DNA of 64,000 bases, taken from a bacterium. Lineage in GTDB: Bacteria; Patescibacteriota; Minisyncoccia; UBA6257; UBA9933. The position numbers were made by a program, and so were the translations under genes. The notes beneath the pieces were generated by a model. That model saw only the letters and a list, made by a program, of their open reading frames with translations, had not been told where the DNA came from and did not search any database. The stretch is from contig JAJYHZ010000001.1 in NCBI GenBank assembly GCA_021796335.1, forward strand, positions 80,360-144,359. The letters are read 5' to 3'. This document shows, in pieces, positions 24,965 through 32,037 of this stretch. Positions within the stretch are counted from its first letter, which is position 1. Each line of letters opens with the position of its first letter.

Positions 24965-25597
24965 ATGAAAAGCCAATCGGAATCACATAATTTGAAAATG
25001 GAAATCATAAGATTGCGGAAATTATTATCCGAACAAGAAAAAGAAATCGTCGCTTTGCGTCTTATCGCCGATTATGATTTTTTAACCGGTCTTTATAATC
25101 GTCAGGGATTTGTGAGAGAAGCTGAAAAATTCTTAAATTCTCTTAAAACTGCGCATAGGATCAGGCGCAAACACGGCGTTTTCAATAATATTTCTTTTAT
25201 TTTCATAGACTTGGATGATTTGAAAACTGTCAATGATTTGTACGGCCATAAATACGGCGACCAGATGATTAAAATGTCCGCCGAAGTTTTTAAAAGCAAC
25301 TTAAGAGACCTGGACGTAATCGGCCGTTGGGGCGGCGACGAATTTATAATCGCTTTGATTGACGCCGAAGAAGAAGACGCCGTTAAAATCGCCAGAAAAA
25401 TCCAGTCAAAATTATCTGAAATACGCATCAAATCAATCAAACAAAAAATTACCGCTAGTTTCGGAATTATTTCGGTTAAAAGCAAATATAGGAAAGATAT
25501 TTACAACCTCTATGAATTAATTGAAAAAGCCGACATGGCCATGTATGTTGCCAAAAAAGAAAATAAAAAGAATTGCGTTACTTCCTTTAATCAATAA
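24965..25597 (+). CDS. GGDEF domain diguanylate cyclase with N-terminal coiled coil
   Basis: RWGGDEFIIAL active-site motif; DLDDLKTVNDLYGH upstream block. Confidence 0.8.
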   Translation: MKSQSESHNLKMEIIRLRKLLSEQEKEIVALRLIADYDFLTGLYNRQGFVREAEKFLNSLKTAHRIRRKHGVFNNISFIFIDLDDLKTVNDLYGHKYGDQMIKMSAEVFKSNLRDLDVIGRWGGDEFIIALIDAEEEDAVKIARKIQSKLSEIRIKSIKQKITASFGIISVKSKYRKDIYNLYELIEKADMAMYVAKKENKKNCVTSFNQ

Positions 25598-25604
25598 ATA
25601 AAAT

Positions 25605-25784
25605 ATGGAACAAATATTTAAAGAAAAACCAGATGGAATAGAAAAAGAATTTGAAGAAATCGCTAAAGAAAAAGTCATGAATGATCCGCTTTACGATGAT
25701 TTGACGCAAGAGCAAAAAGAACAATTGATTCAAGGTGAATTGGCAAAAATAAAAGAACTCCGGAAGAAGACAAAGGATAATTAA
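25605..25784 (+). CDS. small charged helical protein (59 aa), not in ORF track (below cutoff)
   Basis: ATG 8 nt after the GGDEF stop; Lys/Glu-rich helical sequence MEQIFKEKPDGIEKEF...; the opposite-strand ORF 25587..25790 is poly-Phe low complexity and less plausible. Confidence 0.4.
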   Translation: MEQIFKEKPDGIEKEFEEIAKEKVMNDPLYDDLTQEQKEQLIQGELAKIKELRKKTKDN

Positions 25785-25874
25785 ACCCATTAAAGAATAA
25801 TAGCTCCCCGGGGGGCTTCACCCCTCCTTTTCATTGCAAATAAGCCCCTTCTAAATTAGAATAAAATTGCATTT

Positions 25875-25964
25875 GGAGGCGTCGCATAGTGGCCGAGTGC
25901 GCTCGCTTGGAAAGCGGGTAAGGGGTAAAACCCTTCGTGAGTTCGAATCTCACCGCCTCCGCCA
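25875..25964 (+). tRNA. tRNA-Ser (anticodon GGA), CCA encoded
   Basis: acceptor GGAGGCG/CGCCTCC, anticodon loop TTGGAAA, long variable arm, T-loop TTCGAAT, 3' GCCA. Confidence 0.9.
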
Positions 25965-27461
25965 AGTTTTACATTCAGCGAAATTGAAAGATGTTGCCTC
26001 GGCGCAAAGCGCCTCGGCATGGTATTTTTCCGCAATTTTGAAGGCATTTTTGAAATCCAAAACCAAAGTGCGGTCGGCAATGCGGAAGTTCGAACCAATC
26101 TTTTTGAGAAAATCCCGAATCCTTTCGGGATTTTCTTGTTGAGCGTATTTTTCGGCTTGGTTGGCATCTTTTAGAAAGGCAATGGCAAGTTCGAACCGAT
26201 TATTGCTCTTGCGCCCAAAAGCGGTAATTTTTTCTTCCAAATTTTTTTTGGCGAGAATGAGCTTGTGCTTTTTAGCGGTATATTCCGCTTGCGACAAGTT
26301 GCCGTCCAGTTGTAAATCAAGCAAGCGATCAAGTTTTGTTTCTATTTCTACAAGCTCATTTCTCGCTTTTTGGGCGAAAGAGCTTTCCGCTTGGGCAATT
26401 TTCATTTTTTCGTTTTCAAAATAGTTGATTGAAGCGTTTGCCCAAGCGGAAGACAAAGAAACTTTTTTGATTTCCTCTTTTATTTGAGAAGTGATGGCGT
26501 CCTCTCTCACATATCTCTGCGAACAAGGATTCTTCCGTTTGGTACACCGCAAGTAGTTATGACCTTTTTGCGTTTCGGTGGTAATGAAACAACCACATTC
26601 TCCACAACGGAAAAATCCTCTAAAAATGTATGGTTTGAGTTTTGGCGATTTCGGTTTGCTCTTGTTCGCCATTACTTCTTGAACGGAATCAAAAAGTTTC
26701 TTTGTGATAATCGGTTCATGCTTTCCGTCATACAATTCGCCGTTATATTCAATCATTCCGTAATAGATTTTATTCTTGAGCATATACTGATAATTTGAGA
26801 CGGAAAGCATTTTGCCTTTCTTGCCAACCAAGCCCAAGGAATTGATAATCTTTCGGATTTGAGCGAGGGGGTATTCGCCAGTCGCATACATTTCAAAAGC
26901 CCGCTTGATATACTTTGCTTTTTCCTTATCAACAATAATTTTTCTTTGGTTTTTATCGTTCACATAACCCAGTGGCGCCCAAGCGGGCCATATTCCATTT
27001 CGCAATTTCTGGCGAATACCCCTCTTTATATTTTCCGAAAGATTATCCACATAATATTTTGATTGCCCAAAAGCGATAGACAACATAAATTTTCCTTGCG
27101 GTGTCGGATCAAACCAAAAAGTAGGAAATTTTAGCGTGGTTATTTTTCCAGTATCCACCAAGTAAATTATTCTCCCGCCGTCTATGGAATTGCGAGCCAA
27201 TCTATCGGGGTGCCACGCTAAAATTCCCTCGGCTTCATTTTTCTCTATGCTTGCCACCATTTCGTTAAAAATCTCTCGCCCCGGCTCTTTGGCGGTTTTA
27301 CTTTCCACAAATTCACGGACGATATTTAGTCCCTCTTTTTTGGCATATTCCCGCAACTCAAACATTTGTGCCTCAATACTCAAAACCTGCCTTTCGGGTT
27401 CGTCCGTGGATTTGCGGGCATAGAGAAAAATCTTTTTGGTTTGTAAATTTATATTATCCAT
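25950..27461 (-). CDS. large serine recombinase (resolvase/invertase catalytic domain + recombinase domain + zinc ribbon)
   Basis: N-terminal YARKSTDE...QVLSIEAQ catalytic-Ser region, central recombinase domain, CGECGCF...LRCTKRK zinc ribbon; 503 aa; last 5 codons overlap tRNA-Ser. Confidence 0.85.
   Translation of the reverse strand: MDNINLQTKKIFLYARKSTDEPERQVLSIEAQMFELREYAKKEGLNIVREFVESKTAKEPGREIFNEMVASIEKNEAEGILAWHPDRLARNSIDGGRIIYLVDTGKITTLKFPTFWFDPTPQGKFMLSIAFGQSKYYVDNLSENIKRGIRQKLRNGIWPAWAPLGYVNDKNQRKIIVDKEKAKYIKRAFEMYATGEYPLAQIRKIINSLGLVGKKGKMLSVSNYQYMLKNKIYYGMIEYNGELYDGKHEPIITKKLFDSVQEVMANKSKPKSPKLKPYIFRGFFRCGECGCFITTETQKGHNYLRCTKRKNPCSQRYVREDAITSQIKEEIKKVSLSSAWANASINYFENEKMKIAQAESSFAQKARNELVEIETKLDRLLDLQLDGNLSQAEYTAKKHKLILAKKNLEEKITAFGRKSNNRFELAIAFLKDANQAEKYAQQENPERIRDFLKKIGSNFRIADRTLVLDFKNAFKIAEKYHAEALCAEATSFNFAECKTWRRR
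25962..26091 (+). repeat. R1 copy A (130 bp), abutting the tRNA-Ser 3' end; encodes the recombinase C-terminal about 43 aa
   Basis: 100% identical to the reverse complement of 27577..27706. Confidence 0.9.
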
Positions 27462-27576
27462 ATTGTTTTGAAATTAGTTTTTGGGCAATCAAAGAAAAAT
27501 ACGCTCAACCTTTCGCCAAGGGCGAAAGAAAAAAGATTGGTTCTGAAAACTTCGTTTTCTCTGCACTGTCGTGCAG

Positions 27577-27706
27577 GAACTTCCGCATTGCCGACCGCAC
27601 TTTGGTTTTGGATTTCAAAAATGCCTTCAAAATTGCGGAAAAATACCATGCCGAGGCGCTTTGCGCCGAGGCAACATCTTTCAATTTCGCTGAATGTAAA
27701 ACTTGG
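27577..27706 (-). repeat. R1 copy B (inverted, 130 bp), contiguous with inverted R2
   Basis: exact reverse complement of 25962..26091; read on + strand it re-encodes ...FRIADRTLVLDFKNAFKIAEKYHAEALCAEATSFNFAECKTWR, continuing into R2 as CFLDEVRTFFEQNSE*. Confidence 0.9.
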
Positions 27707-27865
27707 CGGTGTTTTTTGGACGAAGTTCGAACATTTTTTGAGCAAAACTCCGAATGATTGCGCGCTTCGCGCGCAAAACCGAAACGCTCGGGCGGGTAAA
27801 AAGGAAGGGGGTTGGGGGGAAGGAATTTTTGCCCGCCCTCGCTTTCCGCCGCCGCCGAATTTCGT
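27703..27865 (-). repeat. R2 copy (inverted, 163 bp, GC-rich) carrying a dyad-symmetric site GGGCGGGCAAAAA..(poly-C/mirror)..TTTTTACCCGCCC
   Basis: exact reverse complement of 29843..30005. Confidence 0.9.
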
Positions 27866-27975
27866 ATTTTGCTTTGCAAAATGCGCCGCCAAAATTGGAG
27901 TTGTGTTTGCCCCGCCCGCCCGTGCGCACACAACATTTTTTCTCCCTTTGTTTTGCTTGCTAAACATCATTTTAT

Positions 27976-28026
27976 TTGGTAGTATAAAAATACAGATAAT
28001 AACCTTGTATACTACAATACTACCAA
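27976..28026 (+). promoter_or_regulatory. candidate promoter/operator for the XRE gene: 10-bp inverted repeat TTGGTAGTAT-N31-ATACTACCAA overlapping TTGCTA-17-TAGTAT
   Basis: read from sequence just upstream of ATG 28039. Confidence 0.4.
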
Positions 28027-28038
28027 AACTTTATTTAT

Positions 28039-28245
28039 ATGACAAGTGGAAAAACAATAAGTGAAAATATAAAAAGATTACGCAATAAACTTGGTCTAAC
28101 GCAAGACGATTTAGCCAAGAAAGCGGATATTAAATACACTACGCTTATGAAGGTCGAAAGTGGAACAGTTAATAAGCCGAGCGTTCAAACTATGGCGAAT
28201 ATCGCCAAAGCGTTGGGCGTTTCGATTGAGGATTTAATAAAATAA
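28039..28245 (+). CDS. XRE-family (Cro/C1-type) helix-turn-helix transcriptional regulator
   Basis: IKRLRNKLGLTQDDLAKKADIKYTTLMKVESG HTH_3 signature; 68 aa. Confidence 0.85.
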   Translation: MTSGKTISENIKRLRNKLGLTQDDLAKKADIKYTTLMKVESGTVNKPSVQTMANIAKALGVSIEDLIK

Positions 28246-28249
28246 AACT

Positions 28250-28660
28250 ATGGAAAACGAAACAAACAATAAGGCACACGATTTTATTAAAGGAGAAGTT
28301 TTGAAAATGGAGCGCAATTCATTTTTCGTGCGCATGATTGCTGCCGCTTTAGCTTATGCGGGTATAAGCTATTGGCTTAATGCAATTCGTGCCGATGCAT
28401 CTTTGTGGTTTGTTTGGGTTTTGATCATTATTCAATTTGCCCTGTATTTTTCTATTTTTATTATGGGTTATAGGCGTGCAATAGTTTCAGGATTCAACAA
28501 AAATTTGAGTTTAATAGTTTTTATAGCTCTTGCCATTCTTGGAAGAGTAAATGATTGGGAATTGGCGGTTATTCCTCTAACAGTTATCATAATGCTAATT
28601 ATTTCGGCAAAAGCTAAAAATGTTTCTGATAACAGCAAACATTTATTACCACAAAAATAA
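28250..28660 (+). CDS. hypothetical 4-TM membrane protein (136 aa)
   Basis: starts 5 nt after the XRE stop; four hydrophobic helices. Confidence 0.5.
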   Translation: MENETNNKAHDFIKGEVLKMERNSFFVRMIAAALAYAGISYWLNAIRADASLWFVWVLIIIQFALYFSIFIMGYRRAIVSGFNKNLSLIVFIALAILGRVNDWELAVIPLTVIIMLIISAKAKNVSDNSKHLLPQK

Positions 28661-28671
28661 TTTTAAAAAAT

Positions 28672-29382
28672 ATGGGAATTTTTAATTGGTTGTCTAGCAA
28701 TAAAACACAATCCACTAATAAGGACAAAATTACCGCCAAGCAAGTTTTAGATTTTTCTAAAACTTACGAGGAATTAAAACCATATTTTGCTCTCTTTGTG
28801 CATTTCTTTAAATCTATATTGGATAGTGAAAATGAAATTGAGCAGGCGGTAAAAGAAATTCAGTCCAAAACACAGCAAAATCTAAAAGAAGACCAGTTAT
28901 TCAAGGAGTTATGGATTTTACGCTATGTTTGTTTGCATATATGGTTTTTCGATCTCAAACCACCAAAAAATAAAACAGAATTATCCGATGAACTTTTGGT
29001 TATCAATAGCGCGCTTAAAAGTGTTTTGAAAGAAAAGAATAAATTAGATTATTTACCTTGGCTTAAAAATGGTCTGCCTGAATTTGCTGACGGTGAATTA
29101 AACTTTAATAGTCTGAAAAATTTTAGAAAAAATTTTTCAGACAAACTGACAGATAAAATCCCGCATATTGCGTTTGATTGCACAGAGGGGCGATTGGGCG
29201 GAGAATTACACGATTTTGTTATTGAGTTGGTCATGACAACAATTCAAGAAGATCAAAAAGTTTTCAGTATGAGCGATAATAAGACACTAACAGAGGAAGA
29301 AACAAAAAATATCAAAAATGTAATTGCAGAAATGAGCGACGCTAGACATAAAGCGGCGGAAGATTTTATAAATTCTCTATGA
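28672..29382 (+). CDS. hypothetical protein (236 aa), no recognisable domain
   Basis: intact ORF co-oriented in the cargo cassette. Confidence 0.5.
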   Translation: MGIFNWLSSNKTQSTNKDKITAKQVLDFSKTYEELKPYFALFVHFFKSILDSENEIEQAVKEIQSKTQQNLKEDQLFKELWILRYVCLHIWFFDLKPPKNKTELSDELLVINSALKSVLKEKNKLDYLPWLKNGLPEFADGELNFNSLKNFRKNFSDKLTDKIPHIAFDCTEGRLGGELHDFVIELVMTTIQEDQKVFSMSDNKTLTEEETKNIKNVIAEMSDARHKAAEDFINSL

Positions 29383-29816
29383 ATGATTATTTTCAAATCA
29401 TTTTTTCTGCTCTAACTTTACTCGGTGTCGGCGGCATTGTCGGCGGGTATATAACGTTTTTGCTTGATAAAAAGAAAGAGTTGGAATTTAAGCAATTAGA
29501 GCAGAAAGAAAAAAGATATAAATCCTGCCTTTTATACATGGATGTTTATTTTGAGCCGAAAAATATCAAATATCTTTCAAGTCGCCAACCAGATATTGAT
29601 AACGCCCAAGATGTCATAGAATATTTAAAAGCTGAATATCACGAAATGTTGCTTTATGCTTCAAAGGATGTAATTTTATCAGTAAAGGCATTTATCAATG
29701 ATCCGACCAGAGAAAATTTTTTGAAGACTGTTTTGAACATGAGGCAGGATTTATGGGTTAAGAAAAATGATTTAGAATTAGATAGTATTCGGATTGATTT
29801 TAAAAGAAAGAATTAA
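29379..29816 (+). CDS. hypothetical protein with N-terminal TM anchor (145 aa)
   Basis: ATGA overlap with the upstream gene; perfect 9-bp hairpin terminator GTGCCAGTT-TTC-AACTGGCAC follows at 29826..29848. Confidence 0.5.
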   Translation: MNDYFQIIFSALTLLGVGGIVGGYITFLLDKKKELEFKQLEQKEKRYKSCLLYMDVYFEPKNIKYLSSRQPDIDNAQDVIEYLKAEYHEMLLYASKDVILSVKAFINDPTRENFLKTVLNMRQDLWVKKNDLELDSIRIDFKRKN

Positions 29817-29842
29817 AGGCGGCGTGCCAGTTTTCAACTGGC

Positions 29843-30005
29843 ACGAAATTCGGCGGCGGCGGAAAGCGAGGGCGGGCAAAAATTCCTTCCCCCCAACCCC
29901 CTTCCTTTTTACCCGCCCGAGCGTTTCGGTTTTGCGCGCGAAGCGCGCAATCATTCGGAGTTTTGCTCAAAAAATGTTCGAACTTCGTCCAAAAAACACC
30001 GCCAA
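29843..30005 (+). repeat. R2 copy (+ orientation, 163 bp) ending in core-like CACCGCCAA
   Basis: exact inverted match to 27703..27865. Confidence 0.9.
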
Positions 30006-30107
30006 TAGTTTTGGAAAATGAGCAAGTAAAAGTCCTTATTTTACGGCACATTTTAAAAACGAAATTTACAAAAACCACTGAACCCCGAAGGGATTCGAAC
30101 TGAGACT

Positions 30108-30506
30108 ATGAACGACGAAATTCAAAAGATAATAAAGAAGAGCACTTTTAGAGTTGAAGAAGGCAGATTTGTGTATGCTCAAGTTTTAAATGCTCCGAGC
30201 GTAGACAAACACTTCATGGTAAGTAAAGATGCCGATGAAGTCACCGTAGTTACAAAAGAAGAGAATCTGCCAGAATTAGATATCAAAGAACGCAATAAAG
30301 ATTTTTATCGCTTGATTGCGCTAAATGTATCAATACCGTTCTACTCTGTTGGATTCCTAGCAACCATCAGCCAAGCAATAGCTGAACAAGGCATGAATAT
30401 TCTCATCGTATCTACCTATTCGAAGGATTATATTATGGTTAAGGATGATAAGTTGGAAAAAGCAAAGTCGGTCTTGATGGGACTCGGTTTTAAAGAAATC
30501 GGTTAG
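30108..30506 (+). CDS. ACT domain-containing protein
   Basis: C-terminal beta-alpha-beta-beta-alpha-beta-like segment GFLATISQAIAEQGMNILIVSTYSKDYIMV typical of ACT regulatory domains. Confidence 0.45.
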   Translation: MNDEIQKIIKKSTFRVEEGRFVYAQVLNAPSVDKHFMVSKDADEVTVVTKEENLPELDIKERNKDFYRLIALNVSIPFYSVGFLATISQAIAEQGMNILIVSTYSKDYIMVKDDKLEKAKSVLMGLGFKEIG

Positions 30507-30627
30507 TTTGATATAGCGGATTACAACGGATTATAGCGGTAATTAGCAAATCTTTTGAGCAAATTTTGGAATATCAAAATAAGCAGGATTTTCTTTGTAG
30601 ATTCTTCGCAAGTTCCGTATAATTTTA

Positions 30628-31020
30628 TCAACACGATAGAATGAAAACGCCCGTACTGGTTCTAACTTCGGGACATCGCCTCCGCCAATTTTTACTTTTT
30701 GTGAAATCGTAAGGAATTGCCTCGGCGCAAAGCGCCTCGGCATGATATTTTTCCGCAATTTTGAAGGCATTTTTGAAATCCAAAACCAAAGTGCGGTTGG
30801 TAATGCGGAAGTTTGAAAAACACCGCAGAATGAGATTTTGAGCGTACACACGCTTAATTTCTTTTTTATCTATCACGTTTTCCACAAGTTCTAACCTCCT
30901 GTGAATATGATTTATTTCTTTTGATATTTTTCCCATCACTAAAATTAACTTTTCAAGCAAGCACTGAATATTTTGTTTTGAAACGTAAATGGCTGTATAA
31001 TAAAAACAAATGTATAGCAA
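30628..31020 (-). pseudogene. remnant ORF containing a recombinase C-terminal fragment (RTLVLDFKNAFKIAEKYHAEALCAEA)
   Basis: 130-aa ORF whose middle matches the last about 40 aa of the serine recombinase; no catalytic domain. Confidence 0.5.
30676..30820 (+). repeat. diverged third R1 copy preceded by the 12-nt tRNA-Ser 3' duplicate CGCCTCCGCCAA (attR-like or remnant)
   Basis: about 98-bp near-identical core (30716..30813) to R1, with 2 mismatches; tRNA-proximal 40 bp diverged. Confidence 0.8.
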
Positions 31021-31032
31021 AAATTAATTAAT

Positions 31033-32037
31033 ATGAGAAAAGCAATTATTATTATTATAATTGTGATAGTTGTTGCTCTAATATTTATTATAGTTAAACA
31101 GAATTCCAGAATTAATTCACAAATTTCCAACTCCGCATCCACTGCAGCGAACAATGTTTCTTCGTCGACAAATAACATTCCTTCATCTTCTGTGGGTAAA
31201 ACCGAAGAAAAAACTCTAAACTTCCAGGGATTGGAAAGATATTACCTTATCCATTTTCCTTCCGGATTTGATCCAAACAAAACTTATCCCTTGGTTTTAT
31301 CCCTTCATGGCGGCGGCGGTAATCCGGCGGAATTTGAAACAAAAATGGGCTTCGACGCTTTAGCTGATCAGAGCGGCTATATTGTAGTTTATCCGGCTGG
31401 AACTGGCAGAACAAAATTACTGACATGGAATCCGGAAACCCATATTCAGGTTTATGCGTCCGAACATAACATTGACGATGTCGGTTTTATTAAAACATTG
31501 GTTCAACAGTTGGAAAAAGGCCAAAAAATAAATACTAATAGGATCTACATCGTGGGATATTCCAATGGCGCCATGATGACTCAGAGGATAGCTTCCACGT
31601 ATCCGGATATTTTTGCCGCAGCCGTTTCCGTGGCCGGAACAATCGGAGGTAGAGCAAACGTCAATGCGCCACTAAAAACTATCCAAAAACCGGCAGACCC
31701 GTTCTCATTTATGGAAATTCACGGCATGCAGGATAAAACAGTCAATTATTACGGCGGGCAGACTTCGCCCAGCATATTTTTCAACCAGTCAAACCGGATT
31801 GATCTTTCGGTAGCCGACACAATCAAGTTTTGGACCGATGCCGACGGATGCGCATCTGCCGCTCCGATTGTGACAAAAACTTCGGATTATACAAAAGATT
31901 TTTACGATAAATGCAAAAACGGGACAAACGTCACTCTCTATTCATTGAAAAATGCTACACACGATTCCATTTGGTCCGATCCGGCCGATATCTCGCAGAT
32001 CATCTGGAATTTTCTGAATAATCATATTCGTGGTTAA
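31033..32037 (+). CDS. secreted/membrane-anchored alpha/beta hydrolase (esterase, PHB-depolymerase-like family)
   Basis: N-terminal TM, HGGGG oxyanion region, GYSNGA nucleophile elbow. Confidence 0.6.
   Translation: MRKAIIIIIIVIVVALIFIIVKQNSRINSQISNSASTAANNVSSSTNNIPSSSVGKTEEKTLNFQGLERYYLIHFPSGFDPNKTYPLVLSLHGGGGNPAEFETKMGFDALADQSGYIVVYPAGTGRTKLLTWNPETHIQVYASEHNIDDVGFIKTLVQQLEKGQKINTNRIYIVGYSNGAMMTQRIASTYPDIFAAAVSVAGTIGGRANVNAPLKTIQKPADPFSFMEIHGMQDKTVNYYGGQTSPSIFFNQSNRIDLSVADTIKFWTDADGCASAAPIVTKTSDYTKDFYDKCKNGTNVTLYSLKNATHDSIWSDPADISQIIWNFLNNHIRG

Follow-up and report, generated by a model that had tools for sequence, protein, structure and literature searches.

What is the third copy of an integration-associated repeat, at positions 30689..30814, a trace of? 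In the 64,000-nucleotide (nt) stretch of a Patescibacteriota genome analysed here (the window; GenBank assembly GCA_021796335.1, contig JAJYHZ010000001.1, positions 80,360 to 144,359; all coordinates below are those of the window), the conserved centre of a 126-nt module occurs three times: as R1, next to a transfer RNA (tRNA)-Ser gene; as R2, inverted at 27577..27709 and 100% identical; and as R3, direct at 30689..30814. A sequence-only reading had described R3 as bordered by a duplicated tRNA-Ser 3' end and overlapped by a recombinase C-terminal remnant, and had attributed it to successive integrations at the same tRNA followed by decay of the older copy. Our analysis suggests, with a probability that we put at about 0.7, that R3 is a stub, the P' arm, left by an older element of b type that was driven by a large serine recombinase (LSR) and formed part of an accretion array at tRNA-Ser. 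Successive insertion and loss of most of the oldest element are thereby retained from the earlier proposal, while decay of the 40 bp proximal to the tRNA is not.

Below, L-numbers denote loci or contigs fetched from genomes and metagenomes, E_a is the resident element and E_b the older one, and a junction is written as its left half-site (tRNA, P or P*) followed by its right half-site (P', Q' or flank). The parts on which the argument turns are the following.

25875..25964, plus strand: tRNA-Ser(GGA) gene (ARAGORN; Rfam tRNA, 52 bits).
25959..25965, plus strand: shared core CCGCCAA at the tRNA 3' end, with the presumed crossover GC at 25961..25962.
25966..26091: R1, the P'a arm, right half of junction A (tRNA·P'a, attL-like); it encodes the LSR C-terminus on the minus strand.
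29843..30005, plus strand: right-end P arm of E_a with its core (29999..30005), left half of junction C (P·Q', attR-like).
30006..30107, plus strand: Q' arm, the conserved left end (about 100 nt) of a putative cassette, up to the ATG of an ACT-domain gene.
30543..30688, plus strand: P* arm, right end of the cassette, core 30682..30688 included.
30689..30814: R3, the P'b arm, right half of junction D (P*·P'b), probable stub of an older b-type element.
30816..30826, plus strand: P stub (AAAAACACCGC), the terminal 11 nt of a right-end P arm up to the presumed crossover GC.
Beyond the P stub: old flank, reading AGAATGAG, then the hairpin, then an esterase gene.
30838..30867, plus strand: terminator-like hairpin and T-run in the old flank.
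30628..31020, minus strand: chimeric open reading frame (ORF) of 130 amino acids (aa), recombinase-derived only at residues about 61-121 (P'b and core region).

A repeat search aligned 25951..26094 with 30674..30817 at 90% identity. Of the 126 positions of R3, 14 differ from R1: the first 28 nt contain ten of these differences and the remaining 98 nt four (positions 57, 110, 113 and 126); the match of about 100 bp that had been noted from the sequence is therefore real, with three to four mismatches rather than two. Across the element family the first 30 nt of P' come as discrete alleles: allele a (GTTTTACATTCAGCGAAATTGAAAGATGTT) in R1 and R2, allele b (TTTTCACTTTTTGTGAAATCGTAAGAAACA) at the majority of loci, and two more classes, c and d. 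R3 starts with TTTTTACTTTTTGTGAAATCGTAAGGAATT, which is b-type. It is identical at 119/126 positions to the P' arm of the intact L018 element and at 118/126 to those of L016, L019, L022 and L028, versus 112/126 to R1, which corresponds to 94-95% identity with the modules of intact elements from other Patescibacteria genomes, compared with 89% for the resident copy. The 40 bp that had been read as diverged by decay are thus the normal b allele carried by intact elements elsewhere. The inner boundary of R3 is that of R1 and R2 within 4 nt, and in L045 a solo 85-nt P'b stub stands beside tRNA-Ser.

On the left of R3, the 12-nt sequence CGCCTCCGCCAA has exactly two matches in the window, at the tRNA-Ser 3' end (25954..25965) and at 30677..30688, where 0.02 are expected by chance. 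The match to the tRNA end is thus confirmed (12/12 identical, and 14/16 when extended), but its interpretation as a tRNA fragment is not. The 31 nt left of R3 (GGTTCTAACTTCGGGACATCGCCTCCGCCAA) match a site in L031 at 28/31 positions, in the same relative position beyond that element's attR, and a degenerate pattern for the GGTTCTAACTTCGGGACATCGCCTCCGCCAA region matched 48 metagenome contigs, with conservation reaching about 140 nt further left of the 31-nt tip. The distance between the motif GTTCGAAx and the central GC is 12 nt for each of 56 tRNA half-sites and 17 nt for each of 56 P half-sites: the T-loop motif GTTCGAAT of the window tRNA has the 12-nt spacing found at 56/56 tRNA-side junctions, whereas P* sites have the 17-nt, P-type spacing in 56/56 cases. 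Neither ARAGORN nor Rfam found a tRNA at 30600..30688. By its spacing, its membership of the P* family and the mismatch between P* tips and the local tRNA in L122 and L103, the sequence at 30677..30688 does not have the character of a derivative of the target tRNA. Since P* in L116 adjoins the C-terminus of a second LSR family (54% identical), P* is a P-type arm of related elements. The supposed tRNA fragment is its core-proximal end.

The P* arm also has coding potential. Its minus strand (30543..30686) reads as a conserved peptide of 47-57 aa, GGGDVPKLEP...KFAQKIC* (GGGDVPKFEPKKWLKFKDIDKSIRELR...; GGGDVPKFEPKKW...), directed away from the core and recognisable in 45 of the 48 contigs (L095-L142), with two tail classes (...HPEWFETPKPKSDKGKNEVDYSI or ...ENPAYFDVPAFAQKVY). 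The peptide begins exactly at the recombination core, in frame +1 relative to the recombinase, and no start codon for it is conserved in P*, Q' or the tail of the second LSR; across site D its frame is fused in frame to an alternative P' frame that has ATG codons. In L031 (1..3700, minus-strand view), the region beyond attR consists of a degenerate tRNA-Ser 3' fragment, a 2.4-kb island and then the P* arm. The island encodes a 229-aa ORF and a 508-aa LexA-like/DNA methyltransferase fusion, a restriction-modification-like cargo without a recombinase.

On the right of R3, AAAAACACCGC at 30816..30826 occurs elsewhere in the window only at the P-arm ends, 27706..27716 (minus strand) and 29992..30002 (plus strand), with 0.02 occurrences expected. 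The sequence-only reading had compared the end of R3 to that of R2 next to the core, as in a permuted attP, and this sequence is indeed a real P-arm tip. The minus-strand ORF at 30628..31020 does contain the recombinase C-terminal sequence RTLVLDFKNAFKIAEKYHAEALCAEA, with the recombinase frame open through the module, and no Pfam domain was found in its 130 aa, in keeping with the claim that it lacks a catalytic domain. Its residues 1-68 scored 26 against the LSR, within the range of shuffled sequences (25-29), and with the DNA of the N-terminal part 26 of 500 shuffles reached the observed score. A comparison with a library of 1.84 billion representatives returned 71 matches to the ORF, all but three of which start at residue 54 or later; the three exceptions are weak and start at residues 29, 41 and 47. 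As the N-terminus has neither homologues nor similarity to the LSR, the recombinase remnant is confined to the 126-nt P' module, and residues 1-60 are a translation of the hairpin and the upstream region of the esterase gene. The homology past the shared repeat module that would mark a recombinase pseudogene was not found in this ORF. A candidate for it, the shared TTGAGCGTA or 'YAQ', was rejected, being the stem of the terminator-like hairpin. This hairpin (30838..30867) lies 11 nt past the P stub, folds at -14.3 kcal/mol (z = -4.8) and may once have served as terminator of the tRNA-Ser gene, from which 4.9 kb now separate it.

We also considered the resident element and its relatives, for which 80 loci with LSR relatives were fetched from species-representative genomes. 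The remaining features of the locus are these.

25950..27461, minus strand: LSR gene, 503 aa (Pfam Resolvase, Recombinase, Zn_ribbon_recom).
27577..27865, minus strand: internal inverted attP-like site, intact, consisting of the reverse complement of P'a (27577..27702), the core TTGGCGG (27703..27709) and the reverse complement of P (27710..27865).
27866..29842, plus strand: E_a cargo, with an HTH_3 gene (28039..28245) and family-less ORFs (28250..28660, 28672..29382, 29379..29816).
30108..30506, plus strand: ACT-domain gene (Pfam ACT_7), the only cargo gene of the cassette.
31033..32037, plus strand: host esterase gene (polyhydroxybutyrate (PHB)-depolymerase-like; Pfam), the first host gene past the array.

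The LSR ORF matches PF00239, PF07508 and PF13408, all above the cut-offs, and its final four codons fall within the tRNA-Ser gene. R1 and 27577..27709 share 100% inverted identity, R2 overlaps a second perfect inverted repeat (27703..27865 versus 29843..30005) by exactly 7 nt (TTGGCGG), and the cargo is flanked by perfect inverted P arms of 163 nt. This pattern of arms (tRNA·core·P', an inverted P·core·P' and a P·core end) points to an attL, an internal inverted attP and an attR; CCGCCAA is common to tRNA·P'a, P·Q' and the internal P·P'a, and the arms are 100% identical, as expected if attL and attR are hybrids of attP and attB halves joined at a short core. More than 538 relatives of the LSR were found in species-representative genomes, many of them with 90-97% protein identity and with record titles that name Paceibacteria, Gracilibacteria, Saccharibacteria, Moranbacteria, Magasanikbacteria and others, as well as Elusimicrobia at about 60%. 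The family layout is a tRNA-Ser gene of any isoacceptor, abutting P', then the LSR gene, an inverted P'·P, 1.6-7.3 kb of cargo and a P arm next to unrelated flank. It held in 27 of 30 loci with two P' copies; these copies are identical at 126/126 positions in 15 of those loci, and the P arms mostly at 160/160. The tRNA·P' junction occurs 47 times at other loci and P·P' in 29 other places. At 24 attR junctions elsewhere identity ends right after ...CACCGC, which puts the likely crossover at or within CCGC. A search of IMG/VR with the P' anchor gave no match that would indicate a viral origin, and Rfam found only the tRNA over 25500..31500.

Several further features of these elements were observed. 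The LSR is called at lengths between 501 and 580 aa, as its ORF continues antisense into whatever tRNA gene it is inserted in (with tails such as ...WRRxRDSNPR). The internal inverted attP (L010-L064; window 25959..30005) places the LSR gene between perfect inverted repeats of 126-133 nt and the cargo between ones of about 160 nt, and an excised circle would hold two inverted attP sites parting two unique segments, a layout like that of the yeast 2-micron plasmid. A phase-variation switch, which such inverted repeats bring to mind, was not adopted: flipping alters no junction, and 27 of 30 loci have one orientation. The inner boundary of the internal P' (window 27561..27576; L016, L018, L019, L022) carries a short hairpin whose stem varies but stays paired (CTGCAC..GTGCAG, GCCGTGC..GCACGGGC, CTGTGC..GCACAG, GCAGAGC..GCTCTGGC); the changes look compensatory and suggest a functional stem-loop upstream of the LSR gene. 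On the minus strand at 26060..26095, the codons for IGSNFRIADRT contain GGTTCGAACTTCCGCATTGCCGACCGC, which resembles a P- or P*-type half-site followed by a CCGC core and could be a secondary site or an evolutionary source of the arms. In L001 (10980..13904; ERZ27233565 k141_1385758), the window tRNA-Ser and P' are followed by a flipped LSR segment; next come the 3' end of another tRNA and GC-rich DNA that bears comF-like and pilM-like genes. The contig would be either a chimeric assembly through an element common to two organisms of the sample or evidence of a segment inversion. In L048 and L017 the tRNA is likewise on the upstream side of the recombinase.

Between E_a and R3 lies a segment of 683 nt (30006..30688) that has no recombinase and is closed on the right by P*. 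This segment seems to behave as a recombinase-less one-gene cassette, because Q' and P* ends recur around unrelated single genes, and homologues of its ACT gene from other genomes, with about 80% identity, belong to the ordinary chromosomal complement and have neither Q' nor P* beside them. Q' follows P*·core in seven contigs (L106, L107, L121, L122, L129, L131, L133) and stands directly after tRNA-Ser in L100 and L102. The units measure 658-1499 nt. Their right end is P* and their left end either Q' or P*', a short palindromic partner; each carries one forward gene, with functions that are unrelated: MPG glycosylase, PRK-like kinase, GrpB (twice), S8 peptidase, AraC/GyrI, HIT and ACT. Such units can follow one another in tandem and can adjoin tRNA-Ser genes directly, often without a recombinase nearby (L100, L106, L121, L122, L131, L133, L097, L128); L122, for example, has tRNA-Ser(GGA)·P*' followed by two units.

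The window thus contains four junctions, tRNA·P'a, P·Q', P*·P'b and P-stub·flank, and A, C and D have the same direct orientation as the P stub, so that at least two directly oriented elements share one site with att-type junctions between them, as in a tandem array. Read from left to right, the array would comprise tRNA-Ser(GGA), E_a (25966..30005), the ACT cassette (30006..30688), the E_b stub, the old flank and the esterase gene, past which host synteny carries on in L143 and L144. If there were three insertions at the tRNA core CCGC, one after another, the junctions would stand in exactly the order observed. In this scheme, E_b (attP = P·P'b) would have integrated into the tRNA gene to give tRNA·P'b and P·flank. 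A circular ACT cassette (P*·Q'), mobilised in trans, would then have recombined with tRNA·P'b to give tRNA·Q' and P*·P'b (site D), and E_a (attP = P·P'a) would have entered tRNA·Q' to give tRNA·P'a (site A) and P·Q' (site C). A deletion reaching from the inner end of P'b to within 11 nt of the right end of E_b would finally have taken out the rest of that element. The scheme predicts tRNA-Ser(GGA)·Q' as an intermediate, and this junction is seen in L100, on a tRNA with the same acceptor end as the window tRNA; L100 comes from another organism, and the site is an analogue only. Arrays with comparable junctions occur in L116, where P* joined to the C-terminus of the second LSR (P*·P'') is followed by P2·P'a of a family-1 element, and in L103, which reads tRNA·P*', island, P*·P'a stub.

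A number of observations weigh against this history. The 12/12 identity of the P* tip to the host tRNA end has no explanation if the tip belongs to P*; most P* arms carry A where the window P* carries T, and the exact match may reflect chance or selection. The right end of the stub is defined by an 11-nt match plus its context. An empty attB for the host was not found: an exact scan of the Joint Genome Institute (JGI) metagenome contigs for the tRNA 3' end plus the Q' start (CGCCTCCGCCAATAGTTTTGGAAAA) gave 0 matches, and exact-protein look-ups with the GGDEF, ACT and esterase proteins returned only contigs of the same population, with the array or broken at the repeats. Among the recovered contigs there was no excised circle and no alternative junction. 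As neither an empty site nor a circle was found, the order of events is one that we infer. In relatives, the ACT homologues (about 80% identical) and an esterase homologue (57%) lie in unrelated contexts, and the ancestral flank of the tRNA is unconfirmed by synteny. Integration at attL-like sites is not known for LSRs such as the phiC31 and Bxb1 integrases, so the second and third insertions would need relaxed specificity or a geometry that mimics attR. Metagenome assemblies can also misjoin at repeats, and L001 is visibly chimeric.

The last point raises the question of whether the third copy is an assembly artefact, a misjoin through a shared 100-nt repeat. L001 was joined via the element to a GC-rich organism, and many contigs end at the repeats. 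Yet 29843..31060 is identical in independent assemblies of other samples (L005, which starts exactly at 29843, L006, L090 and L091): the 4.5-kb contig L006 runs unbroken over cargo, P·Q', ACT, P*·P'b and the esterase gene, and L090 and L091, from a further sample series, are identical from C through D. Moreover, the repeat is shorter than the k of 141 given in the contig names (k141_), and we regard a misjoin as hardly credible. Scarcely more probable is that R1 was duplicated locally, or copied by gene conversion, into the intergenic region before the esterase gene, with no second element involved. The sequence-only reading had itself conceded that similarity limited to the block would favour a simple local duplication, and similarity to the resident element is formally confined to a block of about 140 nt. 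The ten clustered differences in the first 28 nt are, however, common to b-type elements elsewhere, and because R3 is closer to foreign intact elements than to R1, its allele speaks decisively against such a duplication, as do the foreign P* arm and the P-arm tip that flank it in the order expected of element ends.

If site D were instead an old attL, it would combine a displaced or duplicated tRNA-Ser 3' fragment with a decaying recombinase pseudogene (the ORF at 30628..31020). The identity of CGCCTCCGCCAA to the resident tRNA end, the intact recombinase frame across the module and the true tRNA-P' stub in L045 all fit this explanation, which is nevertheless largely refuted by the match of the 31 nt to P*, with its P-type spacing and the further P* sequence upstream, by the lack of a tRNA in the ARAGORN and Rfam searches and the dissimilarity of P* tips to the local tRNA in other contigs, and by an ORF whose 60 N-terminal aa have no homologue or LSR similarity; we consider it quite unlikely. 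A different possibility accepts the same origin and assigns site D (P*·core·P'b) another present function, that of a still-usable site of attP geometry kept as an excision partner. Recombination of C with D would then release a P*·Q' circle and leave P·P'b, and recombination of A with D would excise the cassette along with E_a. Site D has retained both of its half-sites and its core intact, its module shares 94-95% identity with functional copies and has an open frame, the four junctions are in direct orientation, and the resident LSR gene is intact. Population contigs often break at cores or arms (L002, L004, L005, L145), which fits either repeats or heterogeneity. Since no alternative junction (P*·Q' with ACT, P·P'b or tRNA·P'b) was recovered from any sample, and the high identity may merely reflect a recent event, we hold present use of the site to be possible but doubtful.

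The explanation that we prefer is still an accretion array in which R3 is the stub left by an earlier, b-type element, and the cassettes next to R3 raise a further, tentative idea, to which we give somewhat less than even odds: Patescibacteria tRNA-Ser genes may host a cassette-capture system based on serine recombinases, with a self-renewing docking site rather than a passive graveyard. The site on a cassette circle (P*·Q' or P*·P*') would have attR geometry, its left half being P-type and its right half B-type. A reaction of the excision type (attL x attR) with a resident attL would bring the cassette in, regenerate an attB-like tRNA·Q' and leave an attP-like P*·P'; a further LSR element could integrate at the renewed attB-like site, and site D with R3 would be the attP-like by-product. 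In P*' the sequence GTTTGAAC sits 11 nt after the GC, near the tRNA-type spacing of 12. Speculatively, and by spacing, tRNA·P' would be attL-like, tRNA·Q' and tRNA·P*' attB-like, and P*·P' attP-like. The right halves of Q' and P' can be compared only tentatively: both have a GAAA motif, whose distance from the core is about 6 nt shorter in Q', but the definition of this motif is not robust.

The pile-up of elements and remnants at one site is a known kind of event, as in staphylococcal cassette chromosome (SCC) islands and tycheposons. In SCC and SCCmec islands, the LSRs CcrAB or CcrC act at the 3' end of rlmH, and tandem arrays, pseudo-SCC elements and degraded remnants are found there. As at our locus, LSR elements insert repeatedly at one site, with att repeats between them and with recombinase-less and degraded members. 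Unlike SCC, the window family targets tRNA-Ser rather than rlmH, is 4-8 kb long, has a single LSR whose 3' end forms an att arm, contains an internal inverted attP, is accompanied by one-gene cassettes with ends of about 100 nt and about 150 nt, and resides in Patescibacteria. With phage serine integrases (phiC31, Bxb1, A118/LI, TP901-1) it shares the domain set, a short core and an outer motif that is 5 bp farther from the crossover in the P-type than in the tRNA (B-type) half-site (17 versus 12). This offset agrees with a rule for attP and attB half-sites that Rutherford and Van Duyne are said to have set out in 2013. The window element, in contrast, is no phage, its LSR gene crosses the att site, a second, inverted attP lies inside it, and its apparent recombination at hybrid sites would violate the strict attP x attB rule, except in a reaction of the excision type. 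Integrons (IntI, attI/attC) resemble the cassettes in having single-gene modules of unrelated function with conserved ends, gathered at one site next to a recombinase. Here, however, the only recombinase is an LSR, the ends are Q' and P* with a CCGC core and no attC hairpin, and cassettes of the window type carry a conserved upstream Q' (and so are not promoterless) and sit at a tRNA gene; the locus is thus not an integron in this sense. Tandem mobilisation alongside SCCmec is the stated topic of PMC11470126. In the tycheposons of Prochlorococcus, newcomers push older elements inward and leave fragmented integrases and partial tRNAs, and a minority carry LSRs (bioRxiv 10.1101/2020.12.28.424599). 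Tycheposons differ in mostly using tyrosine recombinases and in leaving true partial tRNAs, whereas the apparent tRNA fragment here seems to be an element arm, the window junctions are hybrids of element arms, and replication genes are lacking.

Our literature searches returned no description of such elements in Patescibacteria. The logic of cassettes and hybrid sites may be new, the new aspects being the host group, the att arm within the LSR gene, the internal inverted attP, the arms shared with a second element family and the one-gene cassettes. Remnants of insertions into tRNA genes are commonplace, and the R3 stub alone would be ordinary. What the stub exposes is an LSR family, with 90-97% protein identity across many Patescibacteria lineages, that exchanges arms at a four-base core and shares its insertion site with a population of one-gene cassettes. 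If the recombinase does make the hybrid junctions, this would explain how accessory genes are acquired and shuffled in these reduced genomes, would provide a route by which serine integrases can build arrays despite strict site rules, and would supply genome engineering with natural, orthogonal sets of att half-sites whose spacing is known.

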